64,000 nucleotides of DNA, taken from the NCBI RefSeq assembly GCF_964355755.1, contig NC_092673.1, forward strand, positions 5,890,001 to 5,954,000. The letters run 5' to 3'. Shown here piece after piece: positions 1,565-60,202 of the stretch; position 1 is the stretch's first letter, and every line of letters starts with the position of its first letter. This DNA comes from Antedon mediterranea. Its lineage: Eukaryota > Animalia > Echinodermata. The notes beneath the pieces were generated by a model. It saw only the letters and a program-made list of their open reading frames with translations, searched no databases and had not been told where the DNA came from. A program made the translations under genes and the position numbers.

Positions 1565-3132
1565 ATGACAACTAAAGAAGAATTTGTAGAATTTCTTGCA
1601 TGTCTAAGTGATAAATATAAGGGTGAGAAACGCTTGTGGCTAAGACTTCTGCTGAATGACCACTGCTCTGGAGAGGTTTTAAGTAGAGAAGATGTCCCAG
1701 CACTTGAATGGTTTAATGAACTTGAAAGCAAAGGTTATATTCAGAATAACCCTACTGATGTAGAAATTCTGTTGGACATTACTAAAGTAACTGAAATGAA
1801 GGAAGCGATAGATTTAATCAAAGAGTTTAAACTGAAGCATCCAAACAACAATGAAGAGTACAACTTCACCAAGGGAAAACCAATAACAGAATATCGCAAA
1901 AGACTCTTCATGGCTTTAAGAGAAAATACTACAAAAGTATCAAAAATGCTTGCCCACTACAGCCTAGGTCATCACAAGTTCAACACTATTTGGGATTTTG
2001 TATTCATCCTGGAGAGGGATAAACTTCTGGTGGATGAAGAGAAGCCAACAGAACGTTTTGCAAAACTTCTCGATAAAAAAGCAAGTGACTTGTTTTTGGG
2101 TAGGCCTACAGAAATTAGGAAAGTGAAGAGAAAAGTTAGCAATCTTGCTAGAAAAACAACTGGAAAAGTGGAAAAGACCAGGATTATGAGTGATGGTAAG
2201 TATTATATTTAAAAATAACAAGTTCTATAAACAATTCACTGCAAGCAATAAATAGATCTTTGAATATTGTATGTTGCAGTACAATCTATATAATTTTAAT
2301 TTGTTAATGTAAACCATTATAGAGTGCTTATTTAGTTTACAATGAAACTTCATCACATGATAAAGTCCTAAACATGGCGTTGATAGTGTTGTAATGCCAT
2401 TTATTGGATGACACAAAAAACAATTTTATAATATCCGTGATATGCATATACAGTATCACATTGAGTTATCTAAACAAAATTTAACATTGCTGTAAATTAT
2501 TATTGGACCCTTATTTTTTTTTTGTAGTGTTTTGATGATTATAGTTTGTTGCGTGTTAAATAATCCTATTGCCATGATTTTCAATAAACCATCTTTGTCG
2601 ATTTACTAGATGGTTTAGTGAGCACATAATGGTAAAGGTTTATTTTAAGCATTTTGTAGTTTCCCATGCATACAATGTTTTTTAGCACACACAGTCCTAT
2701 GCAAAATAGTAAAAAATAACAGTTAAAAAAAAAAAGGTAACAACCAGTTTATCTTTTTATTATTCCTATTACTCATTACAAAATAGAAAAGTTTAGTATT
2801 TGTTTTGATACGCATTTTAACACCGTGTGGTAAGTATCCAACTAATATTTACACAAGTCTTCATAAGCCAATTTATACTGTACATAAGCAAATTTGCTTT
2901 AAAAATACAGAAAGAATCTATTTTGAAGTAGACAAAGTAGGGCTGTTCAGAATTGCATTGTAAAAATATTTTGATGGAAGTTTTACATTTATAGGCCTAA
3001 CATGTAATGGAAGTTTTATTTTTATTTGCAATCTATATATAAATAATAACAACCCAATTAATCTTTACAAGTAAGAATTTGTTTCAAATGAGGTCTTTTG
3101 ACGCAACTTAATCAACAAAGAGTGCCACCAAA

Positions 3133-3175
<43 letters not shown>

Positions 3176-5471
3176 TATAACTTAATAAAGTGTTCTGCTG
3201 TCCATTTATTTTATTAAATATTCATAGTTTCACTTATCATTTCTTTAGGCCAAACTGACAGACAAACTAAAAGTAGGCCTACTACTGCACCAGTAGTACT
3301 CAACGCTGACAGAAAGGTAAAATACCAAAGACTATGAGAGACATAGTACATCTTTAGATAATAAATGTGTTGATAGGCAGCTGTTAATAATAATAAAAAA
3401 AGATGTATTATAATTTAAAATAGATGTCTAAGAAGCACATACACTGAAAAAATTAAATAAATTATGTTATATTTTACAGAAAACAGTATTTGACAGAGAT
3501 TTGGAATGTCAACAAAGATTCACAAATAAAAAAAAAACAAGTGGTAATCTACAAAATTATGGAAACAAAATGGAAAGTAATAATGATCAACATGTTTGTA
3601 AAATTAGATCGGAAATACCAGACTCCTACTTAAATGATAATCAAGCGCAATATCATTGTACTGAGTGTGAAAGGTATCGGTGTGAGCAATGTATCCAACA
3701 ACATATGGATTTGTCTGCACTGAATTGCACATCAGATGCAAATGTAGATGGAACAAGTTCACAAAAATGTTCAGTTCATACTGACAAAAAATTGGACTAT
3801 TACTGCCTTACTTGTAAACTTATGATATGTGAAGATTGCAAACATAGTCATATTGATAGAAGCAATCATAAGATGATACCAATAGAAAAAGCTCTGAATG
3901 ACATTAATCAAACTGTTAATAAAACTATAAAGATAGCTGAAGACATTAAAGAAAAGCTAAATGAAAGATTAGATGTTATCAATAAAGAAAGATCTGAGCT
4001 TGAATCTAATTTTGAGTTAAGCAGAATATCGATTGAAACTCATAAGAATGAAATTATCAGAAAGGTGAATGAGGAATCGAAGGTAATGATAGAAAAGCTT
4101 ACACAGACTTATGAAAAACAAAAAGATGTTATTGATATTCATATTAAAAGTATTGAATTAAAGCTGACACAAGTGAGCTCATTGATTGAATCTATCAATA
4201 AAATGATGAATAAACCACAAGAAACAGAAACTGTTACATCATACATGACAACTATCACTGATGTTGGGAAAAATGTTTTAGCAGATAAATCATTTACTAA
4301 AACAAGTTTTACACTAAAGTTTGTTCCGTCTCAAAGGCTGAGTGAGTTGATGAAACATGAAAGTGTTGGTAAACTTATGATTGTCACGGTTAATAAAGAA
4401 GATTGGAACATTTCAGTCACAAAAGGACAGCTATTTAGTGTGAGAGTATCAAGTCTAGCAGAGAGTGATGTTGGACAATTAACAGCCACACTAACCAACT
4501 TATCAGGTGAGAAATCTCAGAGTAAAGTAACACACAGAAAGGGAAGGTGCACAATAACAGGAAGATGTGATTTGGAAGGAGATTGGCACATGAACATCAC
4601 TGATGAAGCTATGTCGCATGTCATAGGTTCACCAGTGAGTATTAAGGTGGAACCTATTGGACTTGTACAAACGATAGAAAACATATCAGAGTATAAAGAA
4701 CATAATAAAACAGCAAAGGTAACAGATGTAGTATTAGGTACTGATGGATGTATGTTAGTGTCAAGCTACAGTAGAGAGTTAATAAAGGTGGACCAATCAG
4801 GTTGTTTTGTTTCTAGAATACAAATACCACAAAATATACAAGTGAATTACATGCATCAAATAGGCAATGGTCACATGGTGTATAGTGATTATTTAGAAAA
4901 ATGTGTTGTAATGTGTGATAATCAATATTATGAAATCAGAACCTTTGGTAAAGGAGTATTAAAATATCCAGATGGTGTACGAATAAACCAAAAAAACAGG
5001 ATATTGTATGTAGCAGATCGTAAATGTCACTGTGTGTTTAAATTCAATATTGATGATGGTAGTCTATTGGGTAAGATAGGTTCTGAAGGAAGTAAAGCAG
5101 GACAATTGAAAAAACCAACAGATGTTGCTGTAACAAAGGAGGGTCATGCTATTGTTGCTGATCGTGAAAATAGCAGAATACAAATGTTTGATGCTAATGA
5201 TAAGCTGATTAAGATTCTTGTAGCCTATGGTAAAGAAGATGGTAGAGTCTGGGGTCCTTGTGGTATAACTATAGATATGGGTGGAAATATAATAGTGTCC
5301 AGTAATCATAAACTCCAACTATTTGATCAAAATGGTAAATTCATTAAACGAATAGATAAAAAAGATGATGGGTTGAATATGCCATTAGGGATGGCTGTAA
5401 TCTCTAAAAGACCACGAAGAGTTGCAGTAGCAAACCATTTATCCAGCAACATAAAAATATTTAGTTATTAA
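1565..5471 (+). CDS. Gene 1: tandem-DED + RING-less TRIM-NHL protein (DED-DED, linker, partial B-box1, B-box2, coiled coil, filamin-like, NHL propeller), about 896 aa, 3 coding exons
   Basis: Exons are 1565-2195 (tttttag acceptor at 1561-62, ATG at 1565, donor G|gtaag, phase 1), 3249-3316 (ctttag|GC...AAG|gtaaaa, phase 1 to 0) and 3480-5471 (ttttacag|AAA, stop TAA). The joined length is 2691 nt and stays in frame. Motifs: DED-like LWLRLLL..EWFNELESKGYI..VEILLDI and ITEYRKRLF; B-box2 CSVH..YYCLTCKLMICEDC..H; filamin-end HVIGSPVSIKV; NHL repeats such as GSEGSKAGQLKKPTDVAV, IVADRENSRIQMFD and VAVANH..NIKIF. Confidence 0.8.
3133..3178. repeat. (ATT)n microsatellite in intron 1 of gene 1; a shorter counterpart lies at about 57873-57906 in gene 5
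   Basis: A run of ATT repeats is visible directly. Confidence 0.9.
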
Positions 5472-7090: not shown

Positions 7091-7146
7091 AAATGATTGT
7101 TGCAACTGAGAGTAAACATTCCTTATGAATGTTTTAAGTTAATTAT

Positions 7147-9599: not shown

Positions 9600-10450
9600 C
9601 AGACTATATTCATGCTATCAATTGTAACAGAGTTTCCTTTTTTGCACCCCATTTACGTTGTGCCTTAATGAAGTTACACATATGTTCATTTTCTATTAGA
9701 TTTTTAACTTCAGCAGTGAAAAGAATCCAGATCTTTTTTTTATCATCTTTATCTTTTCTTCCACCATTGGATATTATGTGTACCTTGTATATACAGAATA
9801 AAAACATAGAAATCAATTCATTTACAATATTGTTTTTTGTTCCTGTAACAATTTTAAACCATGTAATATTATCTTCAGCTGGAAAGCAATTAGCCAGCAC
9901 ACCTTTAAATTTGTGCCATGTCCATTGAATGGCATTGCATTCAAACAGCATGTGCTGTTCACTTTCTATCTGATTTATACAATTGTCACATAAATTATTT
10001 TCTGCCAAATTCCATAATTTTAATCTTTTTTTACACGGTAATATTCGATGTAAATTGTAAGAGTTTAAAGTTGAATTGAGCAACTTTAACTATATGTTTC
10101 ATCTTGTATACCTTATAATACCATACTTTATTCCAATCTATTTCTACGTTATTTAGCTCACATTCCCATTTTCTTTGTGAACCTGGTTCAGTGGAACGTT
10201 TGTTTATAAAATATTTATAGTAGATAGATCCTTTAATGTTCTTATGCAACAATGAGTCATTATTACCTACATCTTGATTATTTGTATTGTCTTTTCTAAT
10301 AATTTCTTTCCACCCATTTGGTATGGCATTCATAAGCTGTAAATATTCGATTAAACCATTATGTTTTTTATACAAATTTGAGATTATTTCACCTGCGGTA
10401 CATACTCTATCATTTCATGACATTTTTAATACATTCCTAATAATAATTTT
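9600..10450 (-). mobile_element. 5'-truncated L1/Tx1-like LINE fragment (C-terminus of ORF2 with zinc finger)
   Basis: The frameshifted ORFs 10031-10375 and 9610-10083 read QFNFKLL / HRILPCKKRLKLW..CDNC..ESEQHMLFEC..W, which is typical of the zf-RVT region. Confidence 0.7.
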
Positions 10451-12781: not shown

Positions 12782-14553
12782 ATGCTGCAGTTAATGAACA
12801 GTTCGTTTCTCTTTGTTGTTTTGGCTTCAGCATTATGTGTTATACGTATTAAAACAACGTATAAAACAACAATTGATGATGAATTCACACCCATTATGAA
12901 TCGCCTGATAAAAGAAAACTGGACATCTCCTACTTTTATAAATCCTGACAACTTATCAATTAAATCTCCAATATGCCAACTACTAGCACTTTCCAAGAAA
13001 ACCACCATACTTAGTCGATTAAAGAAGCAAAATCTGATCAAACTGAGTATATCCTTATTATGATTGCTGGTGATGTTGCATCAAATCCTGGACCTGTTAA
13101 CCAACAAGCACAAGATGAGTTCAATTTAAACTGTTTAAAAAACCGAGGTTTACATTTTGTACACCTCAATATTCGTTCGCTACTTCCAAAAATTTCAGAA
13201 CTCCGTTTACTAGCTCAACAAACCAAAGCGGCAGTATCTGAAACTTGGTTAGACAACAGTGTAACAGATGCTGAAGTAGAGATTCAAGGTTATACAATCA
13301 CAAGGAAAGACAGAAATCGAAATAGAGGAGGAGTGTGCATCTACATAAGAAATGATGTATCGTTCAATACAAAACCTGAAATGACTATTGACAGTCTAGA
13401 ATCAATTTGGATTGATATATTCCTACCCAAGTCGAAACCTATTGCTGTTGGATGTTTTTATCGCCCTCCCACTTGTAAAGCATTTCTTGAAAACTTAGAG
13501 TCATCCTTCTTAAACTTAAGATCTGATTGTGAATTGTATCTTTTAGGTGATTTTAATATTAATTTTAATAGTCAAGATGAACCACTATTGAAAAGGTATA
13601 AAGATGTATTTTAGTTTTTTTAATTGTACTAAAATTATAGACATCCCTACTAGAATAACCGATACTACAGCTACTACTCTTGATCATATAATTACCAATT
13701 CAAAAGAAAAAATATTACAATTGGTACTTTAAATGTTGGTCTAAGTGATCACTTGATCACATTTGGTACCCGTAAAATATGGAGATGTCAAATTAACAGA
13801 CATAATACAATACTGTACGTATTCGTAGCATGAGACATTAAAATAAGGAGTCTTTGCTTAACAAACTTGCTAATGTTAATTGGGAGACAACTTTATCATG
13901 TAACGAAGTAAATGAGGCTTGGTTTAGGTTTAAAACTGTATTTTTAGGTGTCATTGACGAAATAGCTCTGGTGAAAGAAGTTAGAATTAAATGTAGAACT
14001 GAACCTCGGATGAATGATAATATCCTTCTGGATATTCGTCAAAGAGACAACACCTACTTTTATTTAAGAAATACCATTGTAAAGACATGTACTCTAAATA
14101 TTGTAAATTAAGAAATAAGATACAAAGAGATGTTAAGAAAGCTAAGTCAGAATATTTCAAAACTAAGATTGAGGAAAACAAGGGTAATCCCAAAAAACTT
14201 TGGCAAACCCTAAAATCTCAAAATACAATTGTACTTAATAATAATGGTCATCCATGCACTGAACCATTTTCTGTAGCTAATCTCTTCAACAAATTTTTCA
14301 CTAATGTTGCTTCTTTGTTAACTGATAAATTACCACATTGTAATAATATATTTGGTGTTAATACTACACACTTCAAACAATACTATAAGAACAAAGGGAT
14401 CAAGAAGAACAGTTTCGTTTTACAAACTATATCTAATGATTTTGTACTTGACCAACTAAATTCTTTAAATCCTAGCAAAAGTACAGGACTTGATAACATT
14501 CCTGCTAGATTTCTTAAGGATGGAGCTAATATTATTGTTCAGCCAATAACACA
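12782..14553 (+). mobile_element. Degraded CR1/L2-group LINE ORF2 (APE endonuclease through to the start of RT), truncated at its 3' end
   Basis: Motifs GDVASNPGP, HLNIRSL, SETWL, GGVCIY, YRPP, GDFNI and SDH, followed by KSTGLDNIPARFLK. There are several stops and frameshifts, and homology ends abruptly at about 14553. Confidence 0.8.
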
Positions 14554-14759
14554 TCTATATATAAATTATGGTTAATTCTGACATAGGCGAGCACAATACC
14601 TTATCTATCTCAGATGTACCGCGAAACGTAGATTTGATAACATTAGTTTTCACATCGACACTATTGTTCCACTTTTGTCTTTTACAACGACAAAATTTAG
14701 CATTATCTATCGAAATTTGTGGATACCACAGGGTTATTTTCACACACTCGCGCTGTTGT

Positions 14760-15952
14760 TAGCGTTGCCAGCGATAAAATTTAAATTATGCCGTATCCTG
14801 TCTCAAATAATGCCAGATTGGGAAAAATAATGCCAGATCCCCAAAATGTGGCCCTAAACAGCGCCACCAACGGTTGTATGTCTAATAAACGTTTGTAAAA
14901 CCCCAACTGACACAAAATAGGGCCTAAAATTGTATCCCTATGTCGTTCAAAATTTATATTTTTAGTTTTGTGAGTAATAACTAATAATTCTAAAAATATC
15001 TGGGGTGCGAAAATGTAATTAGTCTCCAGGACCTCAGCCCCACCATGGTTGATAAGAAAATTTGGAAAAATTCTGATGGCCGGAAATGCCACTTAATTAA
15101 AAAATATGAAATAAAAATATATTTATTAGTGTCTCCAGGATCTTAGCCCACCATAGTTCGAAAATGGCAATTATAATTGAAAATAGGAAATCAAAATATA
15201 TATTAAGTGTCTCCAGGACCTCAGTCCCACCATGGATGGGGCTGAGATACGAAAATTTGGGAAAATAGAGCTGCTCGATGGCCGGAAATGGCACTTAATT
15301 TCAAATATGAAATAAAAATATAATGAAAAATAATAAATAATAAATAATAAAATAAAATGAAATATGGAAAACAAATTCTCTAGAAGTAATTCTTTTTAAA
15401 ATTAGAGCTTCTAAGTTACCGGAAATTGCCATTTTAAGGGTTGGGTAGGGGTGCGGCCGCTTATAATTATGAACTGAAAAAACAAAACTCCTTTCATAAT
15501 GTTTTCGTTCAATTGTCTCTACATTAGTGGGGATCCAATAACCTGCATGAACTCTGAAATAGAGTAACATAATTGGCCAATAGCTAGCCTTTTCGGATTT
15601 GTTGTACTGCCTATATCGCACACACGGTAATTTTTCGAGCAGCCTTCCTATCCGAAGAGTCGATTAAGTCCGAAACGAAAGGATGGAAGAACTATTGTAC
15701 GGAAAACCCGAACAGATCTGTTTTGTACGATATGATATTGCATAAGGTGATAATATGTATTAAATTGCAAGATTTATAAACAAAATATTTTATTTTTGTT
15801 CTGTGATATATTATTTTTTTGGTTGTTCAAAAAACACAAAATTATGCCAGATTATGCTAAAAACGGCTAAATAATGCCGCGGCATTATGCCAGATGCTGT
15901 AGGCCTCCAAATAATGCCAAAAAGCATAATAATGACAGAAATGGCAACTATG
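14760..15952. mobile_element. Non-autonomous hAT-like element with an 8-bp TSD
   Basis: GCTGTTGT is duplicated at 14752-59 and 15953-60. The imperfect TIRs are tagcgttgcca and tggcaactatg. Subterminal (a/t)atgcc repeats and internal tandem gtctccagga..ccccacca units are present. Confidence 0.7.
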
Positions 15953-18021: not shown

Positions 18022-18024
18022 TTT

Positions 18025-18042: not shown

Positions 18043-18306
18043 ATGACTGGATCTATAGACAGAACTGAATTCTAAGAGGAAGCGCGACGAGTGACAATCT
18101 GGTGCTGCAAGTTGGTGTGGTACAGAGACTGATTCAGCTTCAACAGAGAATACCAGACCCCTGAATGCTAGATGACATCAAGATTTTATTGATAGTTTTT
18201 TTTATTGATGCTTGATTTGATTTACATGCTTTTTGTATTGAGATTTTTTTATCACTGTATTTTTTAATTGCTTGTGCATAGTTTCTTCTCCCAACATAGT
18301 ATAGCA

Positions 18307-19911
18307 ATGGCAGAAGCAAACGAAATGATACTGGCGCTGACGGCTGCCTTACAAGGTCTGACAACTCAACGTGGACCGCCTCCAGTGAAGTTAAACAAAT
18401 TCAAGGGTCTTCCGGTAGCTGCTGGAGATCCATCTTTGAAAGAGTGGTTGGACGACTTCAACAGTTACGCAGGGCATTATAACCTGACTGGCGAGGCTAA
18501 AGCTAATTCTCTCCTAGCTCATCTTGGTGGAGCAGCCAAAGAAGAGATTATGTGTCACGAGGACGCTATTAGGAAGAATTATGATCTTGCTGTTAGCAAG
18601 TTAGAGGTGCTTTTTGCCCCGGTGAGTACAGTTCAGTCACTTGGTAGAACGTATCATAGTAGGTGTCAGCTAGATGGAGAGTCTCTAGGTGACTACAGCA
18701 GAGTGTTAATGAGACTATACAAAAGGATGGTGAAGGCAGCTTCGAATGACAACGAGAGGACTGCTTTGGAGAGCTTGAAAGACAATTCGCTTAAAGAACG
18801 GTTTTCAAGTGGAGCGAGGGAACCATGGATGCAAAGAGAATTGCGACGCATTGAGATGGCTCACAAAGGGAAAAGCTTCCAGAAAATGAGAGAAGAAGCA
18901 TTAGAATTCTTTCAACACCAAGAGACGGCAAAACGCAGAGTGCAGATACATGAGGTGGTAGGAGATCCAAACCGTGGAGAAATAGAGGCTCTGAAAGTCG
19001 AGTTGCAGGCTATGCGAGCTCGGTTAGATAGACAAGCGGCAAATGATCGAAGCGGATACGAGAAGACCAATAGGAAGCCCCTTACATGTTATAAGTGCTT
19101 AGAAACCGGCCATAGAAAAGAGAATTGTACAGGTTCGTTCAAGTGCCTACATTGCAAGCAAGAAGGCCATTTCCAGAAAGATTGCCCTGTTCTAGCAGCA
19201 GCAAGTGGAAATCCAGCAGAAGGAATTCCTGGAGTTCCGGTCAGCAGTGTCCATGGAGACGACTCGCAACAGGTTTCGGGATTAGTAGCTAACAGCCCGA
19301 CAGCAAAAATATCTTTAGCCGGTGTTGAACTAGGCTGCGTAATCGATACTGGAGCGGAGACTTCGCTGATCCCTGTCGATGTGTACGATAGAATGATTAA
19401 GGCTAAAGCTGGAGGTAAAGTGCCTGAAGTTACTTACCTAAATATATATGGTGCAAATGGAGAGCCTGTTGAGATTCAAGGGTATGTTGAGTTGCCGATG
19501 AAGTACGGAACAGCAGAGTTGATGGGGAGTTTCTTGATCACCAAACGCTGTGCAGGTATGCGAGGAGAGCAATATCCAGTATTGTTGGGCTGCAACATCT
19601 TGCGGAAGTTGACTAAGCTGAGTGTTCCTCACCAAGATAGCTTTGCATGGAATTTTGTTCGAAGTTTGCTAAGTTCTTCTGAATCTGAACACCCTGAACC
19701 AGTGCAACAAGAAGTTCAAGTAGGACGGTTACAAGTAGCGGCTAAGGTGACACTTCCTGCTCATAGCATTCGCAGAGTAACTTGTCAAGTGCAGAATGTG
19801 ACTGGTACTGTGTTGGTAAGCCCTATGGATTCTGAGAATTTGGTTAAAGTGGTAGAAGGATGCGATGCGGTTAAAGATGGTGTTGTTCCGAGTAATGATA
19901 GAAAACCCTGA
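18307..19911 (+). CDS. gag: Gypsy Gag-protease ORF
   Basis: ATG at 18307; two CCHC knuckles (CYKCLETGHRKENC and CLHCKQEGHFQKDC); aspartic protease motifs VIDTGA and LLGCNIL. Confidence 0.9.
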   Translation: MAEANEMILALTAALQGLTTQRGPPPVKLNKFKGLPVAAGDPSLKEWLDDFNSYAGHYNLTGEAKANSLLAHLGGAAKEEIMCHEDAIRKNYDLAVSKLEVLFAPVSTVQSLGRTYHSRCQLDGESLGDYSRVLMRLYKRMVKAASNDNERTALESLKDNSLKERFSSGAREPWMQRELRRIEMAHKGKSFQKMREEALEFFQHQETAKRRVQIHEVVGDPNRGEIEALKVELQAMRARLDRQAANDRSGYEKTNRKPLTCYKCLETGHRKENCTGSFKCLHCKQEGHFQKDCPVLAAASGNPAEGIPGVPVSSVHGDDSQQVSGLVANSPTAKISLAGVELGCVIDTGAETSLIPVDVYDRMIKAKAGGKVPEVTYLNIYGANGEPVEIQGYVELPMKYGTAELMGSFLITKRCAGMRGEQYPVLLGCNILRKLTKLSVPHQDSFAWNFVRSLLSSSESEHPEPVQQEVQVGRLQVAAKVTLPAHSIRRVTCQVQNVTGTVLVSPMDSENLVKVVEGCDAVKDGVVPSNDRKP

Positions 19912-43355: not shown

Positions 43356-46300
43356 CCCATACTGACAGACAACTAATGCAACTACTACTACTTCACTTGA
43401 CCCAAACACAAAGGTAAATCTCAAATACTATCAACAATTATACACAATATATACTATATTAAATGCTTACACAGATCTTAAAGTGGACAGAAACAAACTC
43501 CTCGACATACTCAAACATATTATAGACGAAGATGAACTTAGGATCGTTAGATTTCTGCTGAGTGAAACCGGACTAAATCTAAAAATAAAAGGTGCAAAAG
43601 AACAGCCAATATTCCTAACCAACATCGGCACCCCTCAAGGAGATAGCTTAAGCCCGGTCTTATTCACTGTTTACCTTGAGTCTGCGCTACGAGGAATCAG
43701 AAAAATTATCCAAACAGAAATACCTCAAGAGATATCATATGCTGATGATGTAGATTTTTTGAGTCTAAATAGCAAGCATAATGTAAACGAATTAGAACGC
43801 CATTTATCAACTTTCAACTTAAATGTAAATAAAGAAAAAACAGAACACACTATCGTAAGACGAGAAAAAGAGGACATACAAGAACAATGGAGAAACACGA
43901 AAAAAGTAGGATCGCTCCTTGGGGACAGACAAGACATTATTAGAAGAAAACAACTAGCGCGTGTAGCAATGACCAAACTAAACTCGATGTGGCTTCGAAA
44001 AGATAAAATCAAATTAAAAATACGTATCAAGCTGTACAACTCACTAGTTAAAAGTATATTACTCTACAACTCTGAAACATGGGGACTCACAAAAGAAGAA
44101 GCACATAAACTCGACACATTTCACAGACAGCAACTTCGCAAAATCATAGGTATCAGGTTCCCAGACAGGATATCGAACATTAATTTATACAGAAGGACAG
44201 GAACAAAACCGATTTCATTAGAAATAGTCGACGCAAGATGGAGACTATTGGGTCACATACTTAGACAAGACCCATGTACACCAGCCAACACAGCAATAAG
44301 CTATTATTTCAGCAACACTACCAATATAAAATTTCGAGGAAGACCGAGAACCACCCTACCAATAACTCTCAGCAACGACCTACTCACCCTTTATAAGCAT
44401 AATACAGACATTAAGTATCCCGGACAATTGAAAACCAAGAAAGACATGAAACAACTTAAAGAACTAGCCAATGAAAGATCAGACTGGAAGAAACTAGTAA
44501 AAGAGATTTACGGAGCAGCCCAAGCGGAAATGTCGGCAGACTTTTCAGCGGAAAGGCAGTAATAATATAGATCTTAAAATACCTTATAACTAACTAATGC
44601 AAAGAAAATCTTATTGAGAAGCACTACAATATTGGTATTTTGTAGGCCTATACTAAAATATAAATATATATTATTATTATTATTTTATTATTATAAATAT
44701 TATATTTTTTCTAATGTTCTTCTACTGTAAATCCAGGTAATCCTTACAAAAATGGTTAGTTATATATAAATAAATATTATATTTTACAGATAACTGATAA
44801 AACAGTGTTGAAGTTTGTTGACAAAAGAGATCTGGAATGTTTAATCTGCTTACAAAGATTCACAAATCCAAAAGTGCTTAAGTGTCTTCATACTTATTGT
44901 CTTAACTGCCTGCAAAATTTAATAAGGCGCGGCAAAATAAGATGTCCAAAATGCCGTCATTCGTACAATTTTAAAATAGATGATTTGAAAAGTCTAAAGT
45001 GTAATGACACGATAAGCTATATAGTTCAATTTGTTTGCAAGATTGAATCTGAAAAGCCAGAAACATGTTCAAGTTGTAAAAATAAACCACTATACCATTG
45101 CTCTAATTGTGAAATGTATCTGTGTGGTCAGTGCATCCAACAGCATAAGGATGTGCCTGCATTTAAGAACCATTCACTATATACACTGGATACAAATGAA
45201 AAAGAAAAAAGCAAAGATTCACCAACCTGTTAAACATATTCTCAGTTGCTATAAAAGTAAACATGAAGTGATCTCAATGAAGACAGCTCTGAATGACATT
45301 AATCAAAATGTTACTGAAACTATGAAGATAGCTGAAGGCATTGAGAGAAAATTAAAGAAAAGATTAGATGATATCACCAAAGAAAGAAAAGAGTTTAAAT
45401 CTAGTTTGAAGTTAAGCAGAACAGCAATTGAAATTCATGAGAGTACAGTGATCTGAAAGGTGAAGGAAGAAACCAAGGTACTGATGGAAAATCTTACAGA
45501 GATTTATGAAGAACAAAGCAAAGTTTTTAATATTCAAGTTAAAAATATTGAATCAAAGTTGACAAATTTAAACTCATTGATGGACTCAATCAATAAAATG
45601 ATGAATAAACCAACAGAAACACTTGCATCATATCAGATGAATATCAATGTCATTGGAATTGAGGCAACAGCAGATTTGGATAAATCATTTACTAAAATAA
45701 CAATGACGCCCAAATTTATTCCATCTACAAAGCTGGTTGAGTTAATGAATCATGAAGGTGTTGGTAAACTTATCACTGTTGGTGGTGTATACAAGGTTAA
45801 TAAAAAAGACAAGAACATTTCAGTCACAAAAGGACAGCCATTTAGTGTGAGAGTATCAAGTCTAGCAGAGAGTGATGTTGGTCAATTAACAGCCACAATA
45901 AGTAACTCATCAGGTGAGAAATCAGCCACTGAAGTAGCACTCATAAAGAGAGGGTACACAATAACAGGTAGATGCAAAATGGAAGGATATTGGCACATGG
46001 ATATCATTGGTGGAGCTATGCCACATGTCATAGGTTCACCAGTGAGTATCAAGGTGGAACCTCTTGGACTTTTACATACCATAGATAACATATCAGAGTA
46101 TAAAGAATAATAATAAAACAGCAAAAGTGGCAGATGTAGTATTAGATACTGATGGATGTATGTTAGTGTCAAGCTACAGTAAAGATTTAATAAAATTTGA
46201 TCAATCAGGTGGCTTTGTTTCTAAAATACAAATACTACAAAATGTCAAAGTCAATCAAATGCAACAAATAGGCAATGGTCACATGGTGTATAGCGACAAT

Positions 46301-46871
46301 ATAGACAAATGTGTTGTAATGTGCGATAATCAATAAATGAAATTAGAATATTTGGTAAAGGAGTATTAAAATATCCAGATGGAATAACAGTAAACAAAAA
46401 GACCAGGATTTTATATGTAGTAGATCGTGAATGTCACTATGTGTTCAATATTGATGATGGTAGTCTACTGGGTAAGATAGGTTCTGAAGGCAGTGAACCA
46501 GGTCAAATGAAAAGTTCGTTAGATGTTGCTTTAACAAAGGTGGGTCCATGTGATTGTTGCTGATTATCACAATGACAGAATACAATGTTTGATGCTAATG
46601 ATAAGCTGATTAAGATTCTTGTAGCCTATGGTAAAGAAGATGGTAGAGTCTGGGGTCCTTGTGGTATAACTATAGATATGGATGGAAATATAATAGTGTC
46701 CAGTAATCATAAACTCCAACTATTTGATTCAAATGGTAAATTCATTAAACGAATAGATATTAAGATGATGGGTTGAATGTTCCATTAGGGATTGCTGTAA
46801 TTTCTAAAAGACCAAGAAGAGTTGCAGTGGCAAACTTTAAAGCAAACAATATAAAAATATTTAATTATTAA
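43356..46871 (+). pseudogene. Gene 3: TRIM-NHL pseudogene (linker exon plus RING/B-box1/coiled coil/filamin/NHL exon); no DED exon found
   Basis: The linker exon 43356-43413 is 58 nt and out of frame. The TRIM exon starts at ttttacag|ATA (44790) and has an intact RING and B-box1, a frameshifting deletion of B-box2 at about 45230, and stops or frameshifts at about 45456, 46110, 46336, 46547-46585 and 46760. Confidence 0.85.
43483..44568 (+). mobile_element. 5'-truncated RTE-clade LINE inserted in the intron of pseudogene 3
   Basis: An open RT C-terminal ORF of 359 aa contains GTPQGDSLSPVLF, YADDVD, LLYNSETW, RWRLLGHILR and RGRPRTT, and ends in a short TAA tail. The TSD AGATCTTAAA is at 43473-82 and 44569-78. 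Confidence 0.9.
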
Positions 46872-49376: not shown

Positions 49377-49985
49377 CGCCCTCTACGGCGAATAAGTAAC
49401 TGGCTTTTACAAACGTTATAACATTTGACCTACTAAATTTTTTCGAAATATTTTAGTATGAATCGATTACCCTTGACCTACTCTAACAATTGCAACCCCA
49501 GTTCCGCAAACTTTTTTGTGTCTACGGCGAATAAGTAACTGGTTTCACGAACGTTATAACACTTGACCTACTTAATTTGTTCAAAATATTTTGGTATGAA
49601 TCGATCACCCTTGACCTACTCTACCATTTGCCACCCCAGTTCCGCGAACTTTTTTGCGTCTACGCCCTCTATGGCGAATAAGTAACTGGCTTTACAAACT
49701 TTATAACACTCGACCTACTTAATTTTTTAAACATTTTTTGGTATGGATCGATCACCCTTGACCTACTTTACCATTTGCCACTCCAGTTCCACGAACTTTT
49801 TGGCATCTACACCCTCTACGGCGAATAAGTAACTGGCTTTACGAACGTTATAACACTTGACCTACTTAATTTTTTCAAAATATTTTGGTATGAATCGATC
49901 ACTCTTGACCTACTCTACCATTTGCCACCCCAGTTCCACGAACTTTTTTGCGTCTACGCCCTCTACGGCGAATGAGTAACCAACT
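49377..49985. repeat. Tandem repeat of about 147 bp (about 4 units)
   Basis: ctctacggcgaataagtaactgg recurs at about 49381, 49521, 49667, 49814 and 49961. Confidence 0.9.
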
Positions 49986-50203
49986 TCACAGACACATCAA
50001 AACTACAATAACAATCAGCATAAAAATACAAATGATAAATTAGAAATTAATTCACCAAAATGCATATATACAGTGTAAATATTTAAAATGGTATAATGCT
50101 TAATTAAATTGATATTTTGGCTAATATTTATTGTTTTTTTTTTATATTATTATAAATTGTAGGCCTAATTATTATAGCTGCTGATTTTGTATGGTTCTAG
50201 AAA

Positions 50204-52989
50204 ATGGCAACAAAGGAAGAATTTGTAGACTTTCTTTCAAATTTAAATGATAAATATAAAGGTGAGTATTGTTTGTGGCTAAGACTTCTGCTAAATGACC
50301 ACTGCTCTGGAATGGTATTAAGTAAAGAAAATGTACCAGCACTTGAATGGTTTAATGAACTTCAAAGCAAAGGTTATATTCATTATAACCCTACTGATGT
50401 AGACATTTTGTTAGAGATTGCTAAAGTTACTGAGATGAAGGAAGCGGTAGATTTAATAGAACAATTTAAAGTAAAGCATCCAAACAACAATGAAGAGTAC
50501 AACTTTACAAAGGGAAAACCAATAACAGAATATCGCAAAAGACTATTCACAGCTTTAAGAGAAAATACAACAAATGTATCAACCATGCTTGCCCACTACA
50601 GCCTAGGTCATCTTAAGTTCAACACTATTTGGGATTTTGTATTCGTCCTGGAGAGGGATACACTTCTGGTGGATGAAAAGAAGTCAATGGAACGATTTGC
50701 AAAGATTCTCGATAAAAAAGCTAGAGACACTTTTTTGGAGATAAAAAAAATGAAGACAAGACTAAACGCCATTGCTGATGAAGTATCCAGAGAAGAGGAA
50801 GAGAACAAGAATGTATTGCCGGTAGAATATGTTTCAGGTAATTACCATGCATATGATTTGCATGCACAGTTCTTTCCTAAATGTAAATTATTCCTCAGTA
50901 AAGTAATCATGTATATAAAATATTGATATGGGATATTGAGATTTTAGGCTAAACTGGCTGGTGCCACTTTAATAGATTGAAAAAGATCAGCTGCAAACGA
51001 GGCTTAACATAGTAATAGATACTTTTGTAAAGCCAAGTACCTGAAAATATAGGTTCACTGCATGAAAAAGTCAATTATTTCTTATAAACAATAACATTAA
51101 TTTATAGTTTCATTTTCTATACTTTAGAGAAAACTGGCAGACAAGCTACAACAAGTACTGTATCAATCGAACCACTTAAATCTGAAACAAAGGTATATAC
51201 TGTAATAATAATATAGTTTAAAACAATAATATATTAAATTCAAATTTTTGTCTTACATTGATAACTTTGATAATGATGATTAATGTATTATGTTTTACAG
51301 TTGTTTGTTGACAAAAAAAGTCTGGAGTGCTTAATCAAATCAAAAGATTCACTAAACTGTCCACATCACCCAGATAAAAAACTGAAGGAGCATTGCCTAA
51401 CATGTAATCTTACTGCATGTGAAGATTGCAAACATATTCTCAGTTGTTATAGAAATAAACATGAGGTGATTCAACTGCAGACAGCTCTAAAAGCAAGATT
51501 AGATAGTATCACTAAAGAAAAATCAGACTTTGAAGCTAATTTTGAGTTATGCAAAACAAAGATTGAATTTCAAAAGATTAACATTATCAGAAAGGTGGAG
51601 GAAGGAACGCAGATAATAATTGAAAATCTTACACAGATTTATAAAGACCAAAAAGAAGTTATTGAGAGTCAAGTTAAAATTATTGAATCACAGCTAGAGC
51701 AAGTAAACTCCATAAACATAATCAGTAAAACGAGGAATGAAACACAAGAAAAAGAAATTCTTGCATCATACAAGACAACTAACGATTCTGCAGATGAATT
51801 AGATAAACCATTTACTAAAACGAGAATACAGTTCATTCCATCTGCAAATATGGATGACTTATTGAATCATGAAGGTGTTGGTAAACTTGTCACTGTTAGT
51901 GGTGTACACAAGGTTAATAAAGACGATGAGAACATTTCAGTTACATTAGAACAACCATTTTGTGTAAGAGTATCAAGTCTAGCAGAGAGTAATGTTGGTC
52001 AACTAACAGCCACACTAAGCAACTCATTAGGTGAGAAAGCAGTCATTGAATTAGCTCACAGTAAGGGAGAGCACATGATAACAGGTAGATGCAATTTGGA
52101 AGGAGATTGGCAGATGGATATCACTGATGGAGCTATGTCACATGTCATAGGTTCACCAGTAAGTATCAAGGTGGAACCACTTGGACTTGTACATACTATA
52201 GATAACATATCAAAGTATAAAGAACATGCCAAAACACACAAAGTGGCAGATGTAGTATTAGATACTGATGGATGTATACTAGTATCCAGCAAAAGTAAAG
52301 ATATAATAAAGTTTGATCAATCAGGTTCTTTTGTTTCTAGAATACAAATACCACAAAATGTTAAAGTCAATCGAATGCATCAAATAAGCAATCACATGGT
52401 GTATAGTGATAAAACAGAAAAATGTGTTGTAATGTGCAACCATTATCATGAAATCCAAACTTTTGGTAAAGGAGTATTAAAATATCCAAATGGCTTAGCA
52501 GTAAACCAAAAGACCAGGATCTTATATGTAGCAGATCGTGACTGTCACTGTGTGTTTAAATTCAATATTGATGATGGTAAACTATTGGGTCAGATAGGTT
52601 CTAAAGGTAGTAAAGCAGGTCAAATGAATAATCCACAGGATGTTGCTGTAACAAAGGAGGGTCATGTAATTGTTGTTGATGGTAAAGATAGCAAAATACA
52701 AATGTTTGGTGCTAATGATAAGCTGATAAAGATCCTTGTAGACTCCGATGAAGAAGATGGTAAAGTTTACTGGCCTTGTGGTATAACTGTAGATATGGAT
52801 GGAAATATAATAGTATCAAGTAATCATAAACTACAACTATTTGATCAAAATGGTACATTCATTAAACGAATAGATGATAAAGATGATGGGTTGAATGTTC
52901 CATTAGGGATTGCTGTAATCTCAGAAAGACCAAGAAGAGTTGCAGTGGCAAACTTTAAAGCAAACAATATAAAAATATTTAATTATTAA
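50204..52989 (+). CDS. Gene 4: tandem-DED + TRIM-NHL protein lacking RING and B-box1, about 795 aa, 3 coding exons
   Basis: Exons are 50201-50837 (ATG at 50204, donor G|gtaatt), 51128-51192 and 51301-52989, totalling 2388 nt in frame. B-box2 reads CPHHPDKKLKEHCLTCNLTACEDC..H, and the NHL repeats are intact. Confidence 0.8.
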
Positions 52990-54689
52990 AAAGCTAAAAA
53001 CATACAAACAAATCATAACCTGTACAGTATGCTTTCAACAAATTTAGTTAAATGTCTATAGTGTGAAAGCACAAATTATCTGAACTGAAGCATACAAGAA
53101 TTATCTTTTTTTTATAGTAAACTTACTCTATGTACATTTTATATTCTGTTGTTATATAATTATTATTGCTTCTGATTTCTAGCGAGAAATGTATTTCAGA
53201 TGTTTTACATGACTACTAAAATCTGTATTGTATGTTGTTAAAGACAAGGTAAAATTATATACAACTGTAAAGCTATATGTCTAAATGTCTTAAATGTTTA
53301 ATGTCTTATTAATATGCATAGTAAGGAGATTCTCATAAACTAAAAGTCAATGAGTTGATTCAATACTCATTCAGTTAATTACACAGTATTTATGATCATT
53401 TATATTTTTTAAATTTCAGTTGATTTTTTAAAAAATTTGTTTTCATTGTGAAATAATATATCAGCTGTATTAAATTCAACCTGGTACCATGTAATCAAAT
53501 TAAACAAAAACTTGACACTAATAATATAATAATAAGTTTAGCAATTGCCAAAATATTGTCAAGATTATTTTAATCATTTTGACTTGCATTTCAATATGAC
53601 TGTATTTTGTAGAACGCTTTTTGTTACATTTTATTACATTATAAAACAATCAGGTGAATTGTTTCAACAAGGTACCACAATGTACAAAAACACTGGTAAA
53701 AGGAAAAGGTTTAGCAATTTAGCCAATATATAATTGTGTTTATCTTTGATAATGATTTATAAATTTTACTTACAGTTTTCATATAATCTTGATGGAATAT
53801 GTTGTCATACTGTTAACTAGCATGCTACATGGTGCTACAATTGGAGCATAAATAAAAAAGGAAACATGAAAGTGGCCTATATTAGGCCTATATTATATTT
53901 TTTCAAGTAATAAAGGCAAAAGTTTACATAGAAATGTAAAAACGGATTATCTAACCTTGTATATAAGATCACAATAAGATTTATAATAGAAATATATAAC
54001 ATATTTAAACTTGTTTATCTCAGTAGATCAATTTTAATATGCCAGAATCTGATACAACATAATGCATGGATTTACCAAGCCAAGCTCTCTATCTTAATGC
54101 TATATCATCAGATATACACATGTTTTATTAGCTGCTTTGATGTTTTTGGTTGCAACTATTTTTCGATGCTAATTTATTATAATTATTTGTGTGTGTTGAA
54201 AGCAATAAATTGATTGATGTATTATATTTTCTTATTTTTTTTAATGTATTTTTAAATAATTAATGGGGGCATGAGATTACTATACCTTCATCCAGTTCGG
54301 GATTTATGTTCGAAATAATTCAGTTCTAACATAAACTAATGGATAAAAGGGAATTAAAAGGTGCTGGTATCAGACGTGCGGTTTAGGAGGAGATAGAGGA
54401 ACAAATTTTGGCTTAGTGCTATTATATTATAGATATTTAATTCTTAAACTGTGAATTCATTTGGATTCATTTAAAAAAGCGAAGTATCTTCTTTTAAGCC
54501 CTTATTAAGACTTTGATTTGGGTGTTTATAGCATCCTTTTGAGGTTTTCCAACCAGCGAAGACCTAGCCTAGCTAACACAGAACATACTCCATCAAGCCA
54601 GCATCTACAGAGGTCTATGCGGCCTAGGATGAAGCTTACCATTGTAGACGTGTTAAACACATTTAATAACTGGAGGGAAGACACTTTTG

Positions 54690-57600
54690 TACAACCATCA
54701 TGTGAATATGTTACAAAACTGCTCTACGGTAAACTATGTATCTACATGGAGTAAAGAATAATTCTTATTTTTTACTCCATGGTATCTATATAAATATAAG
54801 GTAGCTTAATATGTTCAACCCAAGCAAGAAGAGCAGACAGCAAACTGACCACTATCAGAAATGTTCAAATGGTTTTCACAATATTGGCATTATGCTGAAG
54901 ATTTACCTTATGACAACATAACTTGGCTCAAAGATTATTTGGCAAACATCTCAGATTCTATCAATTCAGTGATTACACCTATTGTTGTAAATGAAGTAGT
55001 ATTTCCAGTCATATTGTTAAATCTGTGAAAAAACAAACGAAATGGGTTGATTAGTGGAGAAAAACAAAACACATTGCAAAGTAAGTATTACAATAATTTT
55101 TGTTATATTTGAGAATGGTAATAAGAAATGTTTCCAGAAATGCACTGTTAAAATGAGTTGGTACTGTAGTATACCTGTAGGCCTACCCATGGACTGACAA
55201 GGGAAAAACACCGAAGAAACCATGACACTCATACATATCCAGGTACCACACAAGATCTCTGCAAATGAATATTACATTTGTTTGCATAAAATAGAACAGA
55301 TTTAAAATGTAAACAAAATTCTTGGTATATAAGGCTAAAATAATGCTCTTTTATGCTGAAGCACACATTGGTACATTGATAAATTAGTACTGTATAGACA
55401 TAAAATTTAAAAAAATATTACAACAATTGAAAAGAAAAACAATTAGTTAGCTAGTAATATAGCTCAGATAAGAACATTGGGATAGTGTCCTAAATCCTAA
55501 AAGATAAAATATTACAGATTGATTTAAAAAAAGCATATTACATTTTGTTTCTGTATTACTATGGCTTGTCATACTTTATAAAGAAAGTTTGCGTGACAAG
55601 TTCTATTAAAGTCCAGAGTTCACAACATTTATATCTATTATATCAAGACAATGTATTGTATTCAAGTTTTATGACACAGAAACCATTGTTAATGATACTT
55701 ATATTTATTGATGAGTAATATTCTATTTTGCGGGGAGTCAAAATTCCATGTCCTATATTTATATTTATTGTACCACTCATACTTCTAAATACTGTGATTT
55801 ATTTTCGCTAGATTATAGGAAGAACTAAATCTATCGCATCTTCTATTACAATACGTTTCAGTTTAATCCAACAAAAAGATATAAAAGTAAGTGGTAATCC
55901 TATTTTAATAATAGAATTTGTCTTGTTGCTGTAGTTGTACTTGTAGTGTATAAGCTGTAAATAAAAACCTTAGAATGAAGAAATTTGCTTTAAAATAATA
56001 TTAAAAAAATAATAGACTAATAATATGTTGTAGAAGATTGATGTAAAAAAAATTTAACACATTAAAAGAAATCAACATATAAAAAAATGCAATTTGAATT
56101 TTGAACTGGTAGAGATCATATTGATTTAAAAATGTAGGCCTTATTAATTACTGTACCTGTATTAAAATATTTATATTATTAACTTTTTAAACTTTTTAAA
56201 TTCTCATAATACACCAACAATTGATGACTTGTAAAAATTTCATGAACAATACCATAATATATAATAGGTAATACTCAATCTAAGTATTATTGTAGCTATG
56301 AATGATTATGTGTGTACGTTTTTTAGAAATGACAACAAAACAAGAATTTGTAAAATTTCTTGCATGCTTAAGTGATAAATATGAAGGTGAGAAACGCTTG
56401 TGGCTAAGACTTCTGCTGAATGACCACTGCTCTGGAGAGGTTTTAAGTAGAGAAGATGTCCCAGCACTTGAATGGTTTAATGAACTTGAAAGCAAAGGTT
56501 ATATTCAGAATAACCCTACTGATGTAGAAATTCTGTTGGACATTACTAAAGTAACTGAAATGAAGGAAGCGATAGATTTAATCAAAGAGTTTAAACTGAA
56601 GCATCCAAACAACAATGAAGAGTACAACTTCACCAAGGGAAAACCAATAACAGAATATCGCAAAAGACTCTTCATGGCTTTAAGAGAAAATACTACAAAA
56701 GTATCAAACATGCTTGCCTATTACAGCCTTGGTCATCACAAGTTCAATACTATTTGGGATTTCGTATTCATCCTGGAGAGGGATAAACTTCTGGTGGATG
56801 AAGAGAAGCCAACAGAACGTTTTGCAAAACTTCTCGATAAAAAAGCAAGTGACTTGTTTTTGGGTAGGCCTACAGAAATTAGGAAAGTGAAGAGAAAAGT
56901 TAGCAATCTTGCTAGAAAAACAACTGGAAAAGTGGAAAAGACCAGGATTATGAGTGATGGTAAGTATTATATTTAAAAATAACAAGTTCTATAAACAATT
57001 CACTGCAAGCAATAAATAGATCTTTGAATATTGTATGTTGCAGTACAATCTATATAATTTTAATTTGTTAATGTAAACTATTTTAGAGTGCATATTTAGT
57101 CTATAATGTACTTCATCACATGATAAAGTCATAAATATGGCTTTGATAGTGTTGTATGCAATTTATCATATTTGGATGACACAATAACAAATTTTATAAT
57201 ATCCGTGATTTGCATATACAGTATCACATTGCTGTAAATTATTATTAGACCCTTATTTTTTTTTTTAGTGTTTTGATGATTATAGTTTGTTGCGTGTTAA
57301 ATTATCCCATTGCTTTGGTTTTCAAAAAACCATCTGTGTATATTTATTACTATATGGTTTAGTGAGCAAATAATGGTAAAGGTTTATTTTAAGCATTTTG
57401 TAGTTTCCCATGCATACAATGTTTTTTAGCACATTGCATATGCAAAATAAAAAACAACAGTTAAAAAAAAGGTAACAACTAGTTTATCTTTTTATTATTC
57501 CTATTACTCATTACAAAATAGAAAATTATTTTATCATATTTGTTTTGATACGCATTTTAACACCGTGTGGTAAGTATCCAACTAATATTTACACAAGTCT

Positions 57601-57872
57601 TCATAAGCCAATTTATACTGTACATAAGCAAATTTGCTTTAAAAATACAGAAAGAATCTATTTTGAAGTAGACAAAGTAGGGCTGTTCAGAATTGCATTG
57701 TAAAAATATTTTGATGGAAGTTTTACATTTATAGGCCTAACATGTAATGGAAGTTTTATTTTTATTTGCAATCTATATATAAATAATAACAACCCAATTA
57801 ATCTTTACAAGTAAGAATTTGTTTCAAATGAGGTCTTTTGACGCAACTTAATCAACAAAGAGTGCCACCAAA

Positions 57873-57903
<31 letters not shown>

Positions 57904-60202
57904 TATAACTTAATAAAGTGTTCTGCTGTCCATTTATTTTAGTAAATATTCATAGTTTCACTTATCATTTCTTTAGGCCAAACTGACAGACAAACTAAAA
58001 GTAGGCCTACTACTGCACCAGTAGTACTCAACGCTGACAGAAAGGTAAAATACCAAAGACTATGAGAGACATAGTACATCTTTAGATAATAAATGTGTTG
58101 ATAGGCAGCTGTTAATAATAATAAAAAAAGATGTATTAGAATTTAAAATAGATGTCTTAGAAGAAGCACATACACTGAAAAAATTAAATAAATTGTGTTA
58201 TATTTTACAGAAAACAGTATTTGACAGAGATTTGGAATGTCAACAAAGATTCACAAATACAAAAGCAACAAGTGGTAATCTACAAAATGATGAAAACAAA
58301 ATGGAAAGTAATAATGATCAACATGTTTGTAAAATTAGATCGGAAATACCAGACTCCTACTTAAATGATAATCAAGCGCAATATCATTGTACTGAGTGTG
58401 AAAGGTATCAGTGTGAGCAATGTATCCAACAACTTATTGATTTGTCTGCACTGAATTGCACATCAGATGCAAATGTAGATGGAAGAAGTTCACAAAAATG
58501 TTCAGTTCATACTGACAAAAAATTGGACTATTACTGCCTTACTTGTAAACTTATGGTATGTGAGGATTGCAAACATAATCATATTGATAGAAGTGATCAT
58601 AAGATGATACCAATAGAAACAGCTCTGAATGACATTAATCAAACTGTTAATAAAACTATAAAGATAGCTGAAGACGTTAAAGAAAAGCTAAATGAAAGAT
58701 TAGATGTTATCAGTAAAGAAAGATCAGAGCTTGAATCTAATTTTGAGTTAAGCAGAACATCGATTGAAACTCATAAGAATGAAATTATCAGAAAGGTGGA
58801 TGAGGAATCGAAGGTTATGATGGAAAAGCTTACACAGACTTATGAAAAACAAAGAGAAGTTATTGATATTCATATTAAAAGTATTGAATCAAAACTGACA
58901 CAAGTGAGCTCATTGATGGAATCTATCAATAAAATGATGAATAAACCACAAGAAACAGAAACTGTTACATCATACATGACAACTATCACTGATGTTGGGA
59001 ATAATGTTTTAGCAGATAAATCATTTACTGAAACAAGAATTGCACCAAAGTTTGTTCCGTCTCAAAGGCTGAGTGCGTTGATGAAACATGAAAGTGTTGG
59101 TAAACTTATGATTGTCAAGGTTAATAAAGAAGATTGGAACATTTCAGTCACAAAAGGACAGCCATTTAGTGTTAGAGTATCAAGTCTAGCAGAGAGTGAT
59201 GTTGGACAATTAACAACCACACTAACCAACTCATCAGGTGAGAAATCTCAGATTAAAGTAACACACAGAAAGGGAGGATACACAATAACAGGAATATGTG
59301 ATTTGGAAGGAGATTGGCACATGGATATCACTGATGGAGCTAAGTCACATGTCATAGGTTCACCAGTGAGTATCAAGGTGGAACCACTTGGACTTGTACA
59401 TACCACAAACATCATATCAGAGTATAAAGAACATGATAAAGAAGATAATGTAACAGATGTAGTATTAGATACTGATGGATGTATGTTAGTGTCAAGCTAC
59501 AGTAAAGACTTAATAAAGTTTGATCAATCAGGTGGCTTTGTTTCTAAAATACAAATACCACAAAATGTAAGTGTCAATTGCATGCATCAAATAGGCAATG
59601 ATCACATGGTGTATAGTGACACAATAGAAAAATGTGTTGTAATGTGTGATAATCAATATCATGAAATCAAAACCTTTGGTAAAGGAGTATTGCAATGTCC
59701 AGAAGGACTGACAGTAAACAAAAAAAGCAGGATCTTATATGTAACAGATCGTGAATGTCACTGTGTGTTTAAATACAATATTGATGATGGTAGACTATTG
59801 GGTCAGATTGGTCCTAAAGGTAGTAAAGCAGGTCAGATGAAACAACCATCAGATGTTGCAGTAACAAAGGATGGTTATTTGATTGTTGCCGATTTTGAAA
59901 ATGACATAATACAAATGTTTGATGATAATGATAAGCTGATAAAGATCCTTGTAAGCTCTGGTAAAAGAGGTGGTAAAGTCTTTTGTCCTCAGGGTATAAC
60001 TATAGATATGGATGGGAACATAATAGTATCCAGTAATCATAAGCTACAACTATTTGATCAAAATGGTAAATTCATTAAACGAATAGATAACAGAGTTGAT
60101 GGGTTGGATGTTCCATGTGGGATTGCTGTAATCTCCAAAAGACCACGAAGAGTGGCAGTTGCAAACCATGAAGCAAATAATGTAAAAATATTTAATTATT
60201 AA
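54690..60202 (+). repeat. Segmental duplication of about 5.5 kb, paralogous to window positions 1-5471
   Basis: Upstream sequence, exons and introns align colinearly. Similarity ends after the stop codon. Confidence 0.9.
56329..60202 (+). CDS. Gene 5: tandem-DED + RING-less TRIM-NHL protein, about 896 aa; closest paralogue of gene 1
   Basis: Exons are 56329-56959, 57977-58044 and 58211-60202. Exon lengths (631, 68 and 1992 nt) and phases are the same as in gene 1. Confidence 0.8.

Follow-up and report, generated by a model that had tools for sequence, protein, structure and literature searches.

Predicted genes joining a tandem death effector domain to a TRIM-NHL cassette, clustered in the crinoid Antedon mediterranea

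The 64,000-nucleotide stretch of Antedon mediterranea contig NC_092673.1 analyzed here (the window) carries on its forward strand four intact copies of one three-exon unit. In each, an exon encoding a pair of death effector domains (DEDs) is followed by a short linker exon and then by an exon encoding a TRIM-NHL cassette. The DEDs are under purifying selection, and the top face of the NHL propeller diversifies between the copies. On balance we favor the reading that these genes encode variable cytosolic sensors that would signal through DED assembly to activate caspases, with a putative partner and ligand.

The copies are termed g1, g3, g4 and g5. In g1, exons at 1565-2195, 3249-3316 and 3480-5471 join in frame to encode 896 amino acids. 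The first encodes a tandem DED of about 180 amino acids with a basic tail and ends in a phase-1 donor; it is identified by structural matches and has no Pfam match of its own. The second is a 68-nucleotide linker, contained in the database protein P0003 (see below), and in the third the RING is deleted, leaving a degenerate B-box1, B-box2, coiled coil, filamin-like region and six-bladed NHL propeller, the last at about 4659-5468. The exons of g4 (50204-50837, 51128-51192 and 51301-52989; 795 amino acids), placed by splice model and for the DED pair also by homology, include a 65-nucleotide linker and a cassette from which RING and B-box1 are deleted while B-box2, coiled coil, filamin-like region and NHL are kept. 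In g5 (56329-56959, 57977-58044 and 58211-60202; 896 amino acids) the DED-pair protein is 98% identical to that of g1, the 68-nucleotide linker is identical and the RING is again deleted. The fourth unit is the 3' half of g3, where an internal DED-pair exon of g1 type with no ATG at its start (33202-33850), a 65-nucleotide linker (34160-34224) and a TRIM-NHL exon (34314-36269) join in frame. This cassette has an intact RING, B-box1, coiled coil, filamin-like region and NHL, with B-box2 deleted.

All introns of the unit are GT-AG, with phases 1 then 0 in all four copies, and each copy has a single terminal stop. Leaving out the linker exon breaks the frame in every copy. There are 3-5 candidate micro-exons per intron, and the homologous linker is the sole in-frame candidate in three copies and one of two in the remaining copy. 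An earlier reading made from the sequence alone had proposed that pairs of small and large open reading frames (ORFs) here are single spliced genes, in which a DED-pair exon, a linker of 65-68 nucleotides and a TRIM-NHL exon join in four copies. All six junctions that it named are GT-AG and in frame, and the joining holds in four of four. Its picture of four copies stands as to the units themselves and needs amending in three respects, in that three copies are without the RING, one unit belongs to a longer gene (g3) and a fifth copy is a pseudogene.

The ATG of g1 (1561-1565), g4 (50199-50204) and g5 (56325-56329) sits 2-3 bases past an acceptor-like AG, so that an upstream exon is probable for each. 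That of g4 is in the same phase as the internal DED exon of g3, and g4 could therefore be the tail of a longer gene. Stand-alone TRIM-NHL relatives start MSAKT, and the matching exon start is without that methionine in all five cassettes of the window. The first in-frame methionine of the four TRIM cassettes lies at residue 31, 6, 184 and 31, so g4 in particular depends on an upstream exon.

NCBI models two of the four copies, each as an 'uncharacterized protein' of Antedon mediterranea with the DEDs unnamed. P0003 (XP_071947250.1) has the length and junctions of our g1 model, and P0001 (XP_071947518.1, 1392 amino acids) maps exactly onto seven window exons of g3, at 27787-36269. None of the sequencing runs listed is on record as RNA, and X5 is taken as probable RNA by guess only. 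Contig 20 of X5 (1097 nucleotides) has record 1-406 on 33444-33849 and record 471-1097 on 34312-34938, with no other letters placed, and these offsets leave exactly the 65-nucleotide linker length between the DED and TRIM exons of g3. We infer from this length that the intervening letters are the g3 linker. The DNA-like runs X1 and X4 cross the g3 introns unspliced. X5 also has low-depth intronic contigs, and is thus not pure mRNA. Summed contig depth over the TRIM exons in the DNA-like runs is far above that of the flanks, a quantity not used as copy number. The sequence-only reading had called for RNA junctions as a check; a contig does bridge the DED and TRIM exons in g3, and over 49990-60400 X5 has no splice joint and little cover for g4 or g5, which is no evidence of silence. 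The fusion is read-supported in one of the four copies, database-modeled in two and predicted in all.

Modeling indicates a tandem-DED fold for the N-terminal exon. Pfam finds a DED in none of the four g1-type exons, and a profile of the DED-pair family matches caspase-8 at E 3e-4. The model, made from a 31-row alignment, has 11 helices and a predicted local distance difference test (pLDDT) score of 92. Its top structural match is the tandem DED of caspase-8 (Z 15.1, root-mean-square deviation 2.9, 155 residues aligned, spanning residues 6-182). The top five matches are all caspase-8 and vFLIP, with vFLIP MC159 at Z 12.8, and PYD, DD and CARD structures fall below the tandem DEDs, none exceeding Z 10. 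In Foldseek the same entries come out on top, the best being caspase-8 at E 1.6e-3, with none at E<=0.001. The proposal that this exon is two DEDs, which was to fall if no death fold was found, is therefore upheld. Caspase-8/10, cFLIP and vFLIP have the same two-DED fold, which spans the whole crinoid exon, but they are only 12-16% identical to it and the crinoid genes are without the protease domain. An exposed Phe-Leu motif of DED2 extends caspase-8 filaments; neither this motif nor the RxDL motif of such DEDs is kept in the crinoid fusion DEDs.

The DED pair belongs to a larger family. A profile built from five window DED-pair exons found 73 representatives, in 46 of which DED is among the best five Pfam families, with 11 above cut-off. 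Among 28 whose species was looked up, 26 are from Antedon, one from Anneissia and one from Ptychodera, and the 73 clusters constitute a lineage-restricted expansion. Counted over the best five Pfam families of each protein, the partners of the DED pair are NACHT in at least eight, kinase, ROC/COR, ZU5 and MAM in at least three each, caspase in at least two, and TIR, TPR, very large GTPase, PARP14-like and ubiquitin in at least one each, making at least ten partner domains. Both DED-pair caspases keep the SHG and QACR catalytic motifs, so plausible effectors exist in the same species for a DED pair acting as the effector end, as had been suggested. A quick tree built on 84 DED pairs places the window type in one group (98) with P0002 and P0005. 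P0002 has the modules of g3 reordered (a g1-type DED pair, a second DED pair and two TRADD-N-like domains) and ends in ubiquitin rather than TRIM-NHL. P0067/P0112 has a DED pair with TIR under the NCBI name 'NAD(+) hydrolase tir-1-like', and its accession numbers adjoin those of both DED-pair caspases (P0059 and P0063), with contigs of equal length, which suggests that these genes form an effector cluster.

The opposite end of the protein behaves differently under selection. Among the four copies the ratio of nonsynonymous to synonymous divergence (dN/dS) of the DEDs is 0.16-0.43 in six of six pairs, and that of the whole NHL is 0.49-0.67. We defined 36 top-face positions by the blade motif, after the row of entropies had been seen; on the model they lie where strand a begins and in the b-c turns. 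Entropy over 11 Antedon paralogues is 1.28 at these positions vs 0.42 at 33 bottom-loop positions (p 1.5e-5), and in 21 Anneissia proteins it is 1.76 for the top face vs 0.63 for the bottom loops. For the top face the pooled dN/dS is 1.56-1.92; its bootstrap intervals lie above 1, and none of 2000 random 36-site sets comes as high. These results agree with the earlier assignment of the NHL as the receptor end. Between g1 and g5 the DNA differs by 2.1% in the DED exon, 1.2-3.7% in the introns, 3.6-4.1% in the B-box and coiled coil and 14.5% in the NHL. Synonymous divergence in the NHL is raised too (dS 0.22), so the step reflects a tract of duplication or conversion whose end is close to the filamin region, and not selection alone. 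The clearest conversion patch, shared by g1 and the pseudogene, is at 5176-5278 and spans 41 consecutive polymorphic columns (p 0.0002), and four of ten pairs fall under 0.05 in the conversion tests, uncorrected.

Like TRIM2, TRIM3, TRIM32/Thin, TRIM71/LIN-41 and Brat, the crinoid cassette has a B-box, coiled coil, candidate filamin-like region and six-bladed NHL; unlike them it is headed by a DED pair, has lost the RING in three of four copies, and is a single exon present in multiple copies with a hypervariable, non-basic top face. Brat also is without a RING. The RING pattern is intact in g3 only and was lost from g1, g4 and g5 by different deletions, while B-box2 is kept in those three and g3 has only B-box1. 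The coiled coil is assigned by inspecting the sequence and aligning it with named TRIM relatives. Pfam finds NHL in all four copies, and the NHL model matches those of TRIM2, TRIM3 and Thin at E 1e-19 to 1e-17. Pfam recognizes filamin in several relatives and in none of the window copies, where the model shows the region as beta strands with pLDDT below 50.

In developmental regulators, NHL propellers are known to serve as conserved modules that bind RNA or protein, and by sequence and fold the present ones match Thin, TRIM71, TRIM2/3 and Brat. The top surface of the TRIM71 NHL is strongly positive (PMC9634614). Over the 36 top positions the net charge is +1, -5, +4 and -2 in the four copies and ranges from -5 to +5 across 36 paralogues, by residue count and not by electrostatic map. 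The top sites are the most variable of the NHL, and a conserved, strongly basic surface of the LIN-41/TRIM71 kind was not found. LIN-41-type RNA binding is thus unsupported, and the analogy drawn from the sequence alone with an RNA ligand is not supported. The ligand is more likely to be a protein or another variable surface than a fixed RNA element.

A mechanism can be proposed on this basis. In the predicted genes the tandem DED heads the B-box/coiled-coil/NHL cassette and, in three of the four copies, replaces the RING. The top face of the NHL would bind fast-evolving foreign ligands, and the coiled coil and B-box would dimerize and build a lattice, as is established for TRIM5alpha and pyrin. 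Clustering on a multivalent ligand could then seed DED assembly, and DED-DED contacts would recruit DED-pair caspases, or effectors related to them, from the crinoid itself, leading to caspase activation. Ligand binding, oligomerization, partner recruitment and signal direction are what we infer for the fusion genes. A conserved DED output, a diversifying face, repeated loss of the RING, birth-and-death evolution and the sharing of the DED with NLRs and caspases all fit a clustering sensor.

Several observations weigh against such a sensor. The DED2 position that aligns with the caspase-8 Phe-Leu motif (by sequence register only) is Ala-His or Ala-Tyr in the fusion genes, and in the quick tree the caspase DEDs fall outside the group of the window type, though homotypic binding does not require sister sequences. 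The matches of the relative searches include no protein that corresponds to g4 or g5; the placement of X5 yielded no read support for the junctions of g4 or g5, with g1 lying outside the placed region, and one depth-3 X5 contig enters intron 1 of g4. The B-box and coiled coil have dN/dS mostly of 0.6-1.5, which is near neutral, g3 is without B-box2 and one neighbor is a pseudogene, all of which fits some decay. To the late choice of the top-face positions must be added that top-face dN exceeds dS at p<0.05 in only three of six non-independent pairs, and that gene conversion can distort dN/dS.

The genes might instead be regulators or inhibitors, in which the DED pair caps or sequesters DED-pair NLR or caspase assemblies in the manner of cFLIP-short and MC159, the RING of g3 ubiquitylates the partner so captured, and the NHL localizes or gates the brake. 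We consider this unlikely, although much is consistent with it: the structural matches include vFLIP and cFLIP (Z 11.4-12.8), there is no catalytic domain, DED2 is without the Phe-Leu motif, g3 has kept its RING, and the ubiquitin fusion P0002 is among the closest DED relatives. However, the crinoid DED-pair caspases have Ala-Tyr or Ala-Phe at the Phe-Leu position, a small residue followed by an aromatic one being found across the family. The motif therefore does not separate activator from decoy, and the argument that its absence marks a decoy was set aside as a diagnostic. Nor would a dedicated brake obviously need a diversifying top face.

A more doubtful alternative is that the fusions are short-lived products of exon shuffling, formed in a birth-and-death cluster when a DED exon of compatible phase came to lie upstream of single-exon TRIM-NHL copies, and that most are functionless as fusions or are decaying restriction factors. 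Loss of the RING by different deletions, the pseudogene, the near-neutral B-box and coiled coil, the many retroelements in the window and seven stand-alone relatives could all be so explained, and retrotransposon-driven fusion is proposed for such genes by Kaur et al. (PMC8195603). Yet all four copies have preserved the frame, the linker and the splice sites at dS of about 0.3-0.4, the DEDs are constrained, a contig bridges the exons of g3, and the same pairing recurs separately in Anneissia. Least probable of all is that these are RNA-binding proteins of the LIN-41/Brat type, acting as post-transcriptional regulators or as RIG-I-like sensors of viral RNA via the DED pair, for although the NHL relationships favor this and different modes of RNA binding have evolved on the top surfaces of NHL domains (PMC5908797), the variable top face and its net charges argue against it.

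The recurrence in Anneissia, a second crinoid, bears on the origin of the fusion. Among 34 TRIM-NHL relatives scanned with the DED profile, P0003 and one Anneissia protein, P0104 (E 3.5e-17), gave matches. P0104 is DED-pair/B-box/NHL in an unverified gene model. In a quick tree P0104 stands apart, and the four cassettes of the window are nested (100) together with seven stand-alone genes of Antedon. Approximately unbiased (AU) tests, run under LG+G4 with fast searches, reject a single clade of fused cassettes (p 5e-5; 36 rows, without P0111) and likewise a single clade of fused DED pairs (p 5e-87; 80 rows, without P0112 and three P0004 repeats). The simple reading of these sequence comparisons is that DED pair and TRIM-NHL were fused independently in Antedon and Anneissia; the alternative is one old fusion whose parts were later replaced by conversion. 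Three further Anneissia proteins have a TIR-like domain fused to the TRIM-NHL cassette, seen as weak TIR_2 matches in P0092 and P0107 and as a similar stretch in P0100. In P0092 a TRADD-N-like stretch lies between the TIR-like domain and TRIM-NHL.

More tentatively, and with less confidence than we place in the sensor itself, crinoids may run an NLR-like receptor class on the TRIM-NHL scaffold, with the single phase-0 exon as its recognition cassette. Its face would be diversified by point mutation and gene conversion, the pseudogene included, and it would have been plugged repeatedly and independently into DED-pair, TIR or TRADD-N outputs, feeding a crinoid-expanded DED-pair network of caspases, TIR NADase and kinases.

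The closest known systems are the DED and TRADD-N expansions of marine invertebrates, fused to TRIM ligases and propellers, that are described by Kaur et al. 2021 (PMC8195603). Its supplement includes oyster XP_011421835.1 (Ig+DED+TRADD-N+B-box+propeller) and Acropora XP_015777040.1 (TRADD-N+RRM+RING+B-box+CC+filamin+propeller). As in those expansions, a constant DED, with TRADD-N in g3, is joined here to variable immune domains including TRIM and propeller in retroelement-rich surroundings, and the evidence is computational in both. The combined DED plus TRADD-N constant region is found in g3, whereas g1, g4 and g5 join tandem DEDs directly to TRIM-NHL in models without a TRADD-N exon. The crinoid family is absent among the matches listed (30 BBOX) in the part of the supplement available, selection on the propeller face is not among the points reported in the accessible text, and a closer case may stand in further rows. 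A literature search for DED with TRIM, NHL or B-box in echinoderms or amphioxus found no paper, most subscription papers being outside its reach, and wider literature searches listed none on this family. The earlier statement that no characterized family was known stands to that extent, but the oyster protein is close and two of the genes are modeled by NCBI. This is a modular invertebrate immune gene of a known general sort, and the architecture is less unprecedented than first suggested. What distinguishes it is the direct join of tandem DED and TRIM-NHL, its likely repeated origin and the diversification of the NHL face.

In the logic of how they would work the genes also resemble pyrin and TRIM5alpha. 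Pyrin is PYD-B-box-coiled coil-B30.2, and the logic in common is that of a death fold replacing the RING on a TRIM scaffold, with a diversifying C-terminal recognition domain. The crinoid genes differ in having a tandem DED not a PYD and an NHL not a B30.2, and there is no homology of the parts.

The order predicted for g3 is DED pair, two TRADD-N-like domains, linker, DED pair, linker and RING-TRIM-NHL. Its first coding exon (27787-28318, forward strand, as are all those of g3) encodes a DED pair of another type, which shares about 32% identity with the g1 type and has a Pfam DED match at E 0.0022 that is below cut-off. The exon at 28800-29135 probably encodes a first TRADD-N-like domain, being 22% identical to the next and having the same protein matches, with no direct Pfam match. 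The second (30626-31030) matches Pfam PF20694 at E 0.0028, below cut-off, and its Atlas top clusters are PF20694 (score 0.94). A Thr/Ser-rich linker of repeated units with a phase-0 donor follows at 32266-32501, from sequence and the mapping of P0001. Each repeat unit ends with the same donor motif (32320, 32410 and 32494), so alternative linker lengths are allowed. A g3 model including a 40-nucleotide candidate exon near 29621 was dropped because the frame was broken.

The fifth, broken cassette lies at 43356-46870 on the forward strand. A decayed linker exon (43356-43413) is followed by a RING-TRIM-NHL pseudogene (44790-46870) in five pieces in changing frames with three stops; no upstream DED exon was found for it within the window. 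The intron between them is filled by a fragment resembling a long interspersed nuclear element (LINE) at 43366-44562, which starts at the linker exon. Other LINE-like fragments lie at 9610-10414 (reverse strand), 13015-15092 and 38169-39496; this last and the intron fragment have Pfam reverse transcriptase matches. A Gypsy-type long terminal repeat retroelement remnant occupies 18268-23131 on the forward strand and is split over several ORFs, which encode a zinc knuckle, reverse transcriptase, RNase H and integrase. A forward-strand ORF at 26456-26887, about 0.9 kb upstream of g3, encodes an OTU cysteine-protease domain (E 2.2e-10); it sits in a multi-copy-looking region and is probably part of a decayed mobile element. 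A low-complexity tandem repeat at 40400-41200 has stop-free frames on both strands, and a 147-bp tandem repeat lies at 49521-49993.

The DED family is divergent and largely missed by Pfam, so the signaling network that it serves is under-annotated. Copies g1 and g5, with a near-identical output module and differing propellers, constitute a natural experiment. If the proposed sensor function is correct, the NHL would add a receptor scaffold beside the LRR of NLRs and the B30.2 of pyrin and TRIM5alpha, and many crinoid TRIM-NHL-like genes now labeled only 'TRIM2-like/TRIM71-like' would gain a testable immune role.

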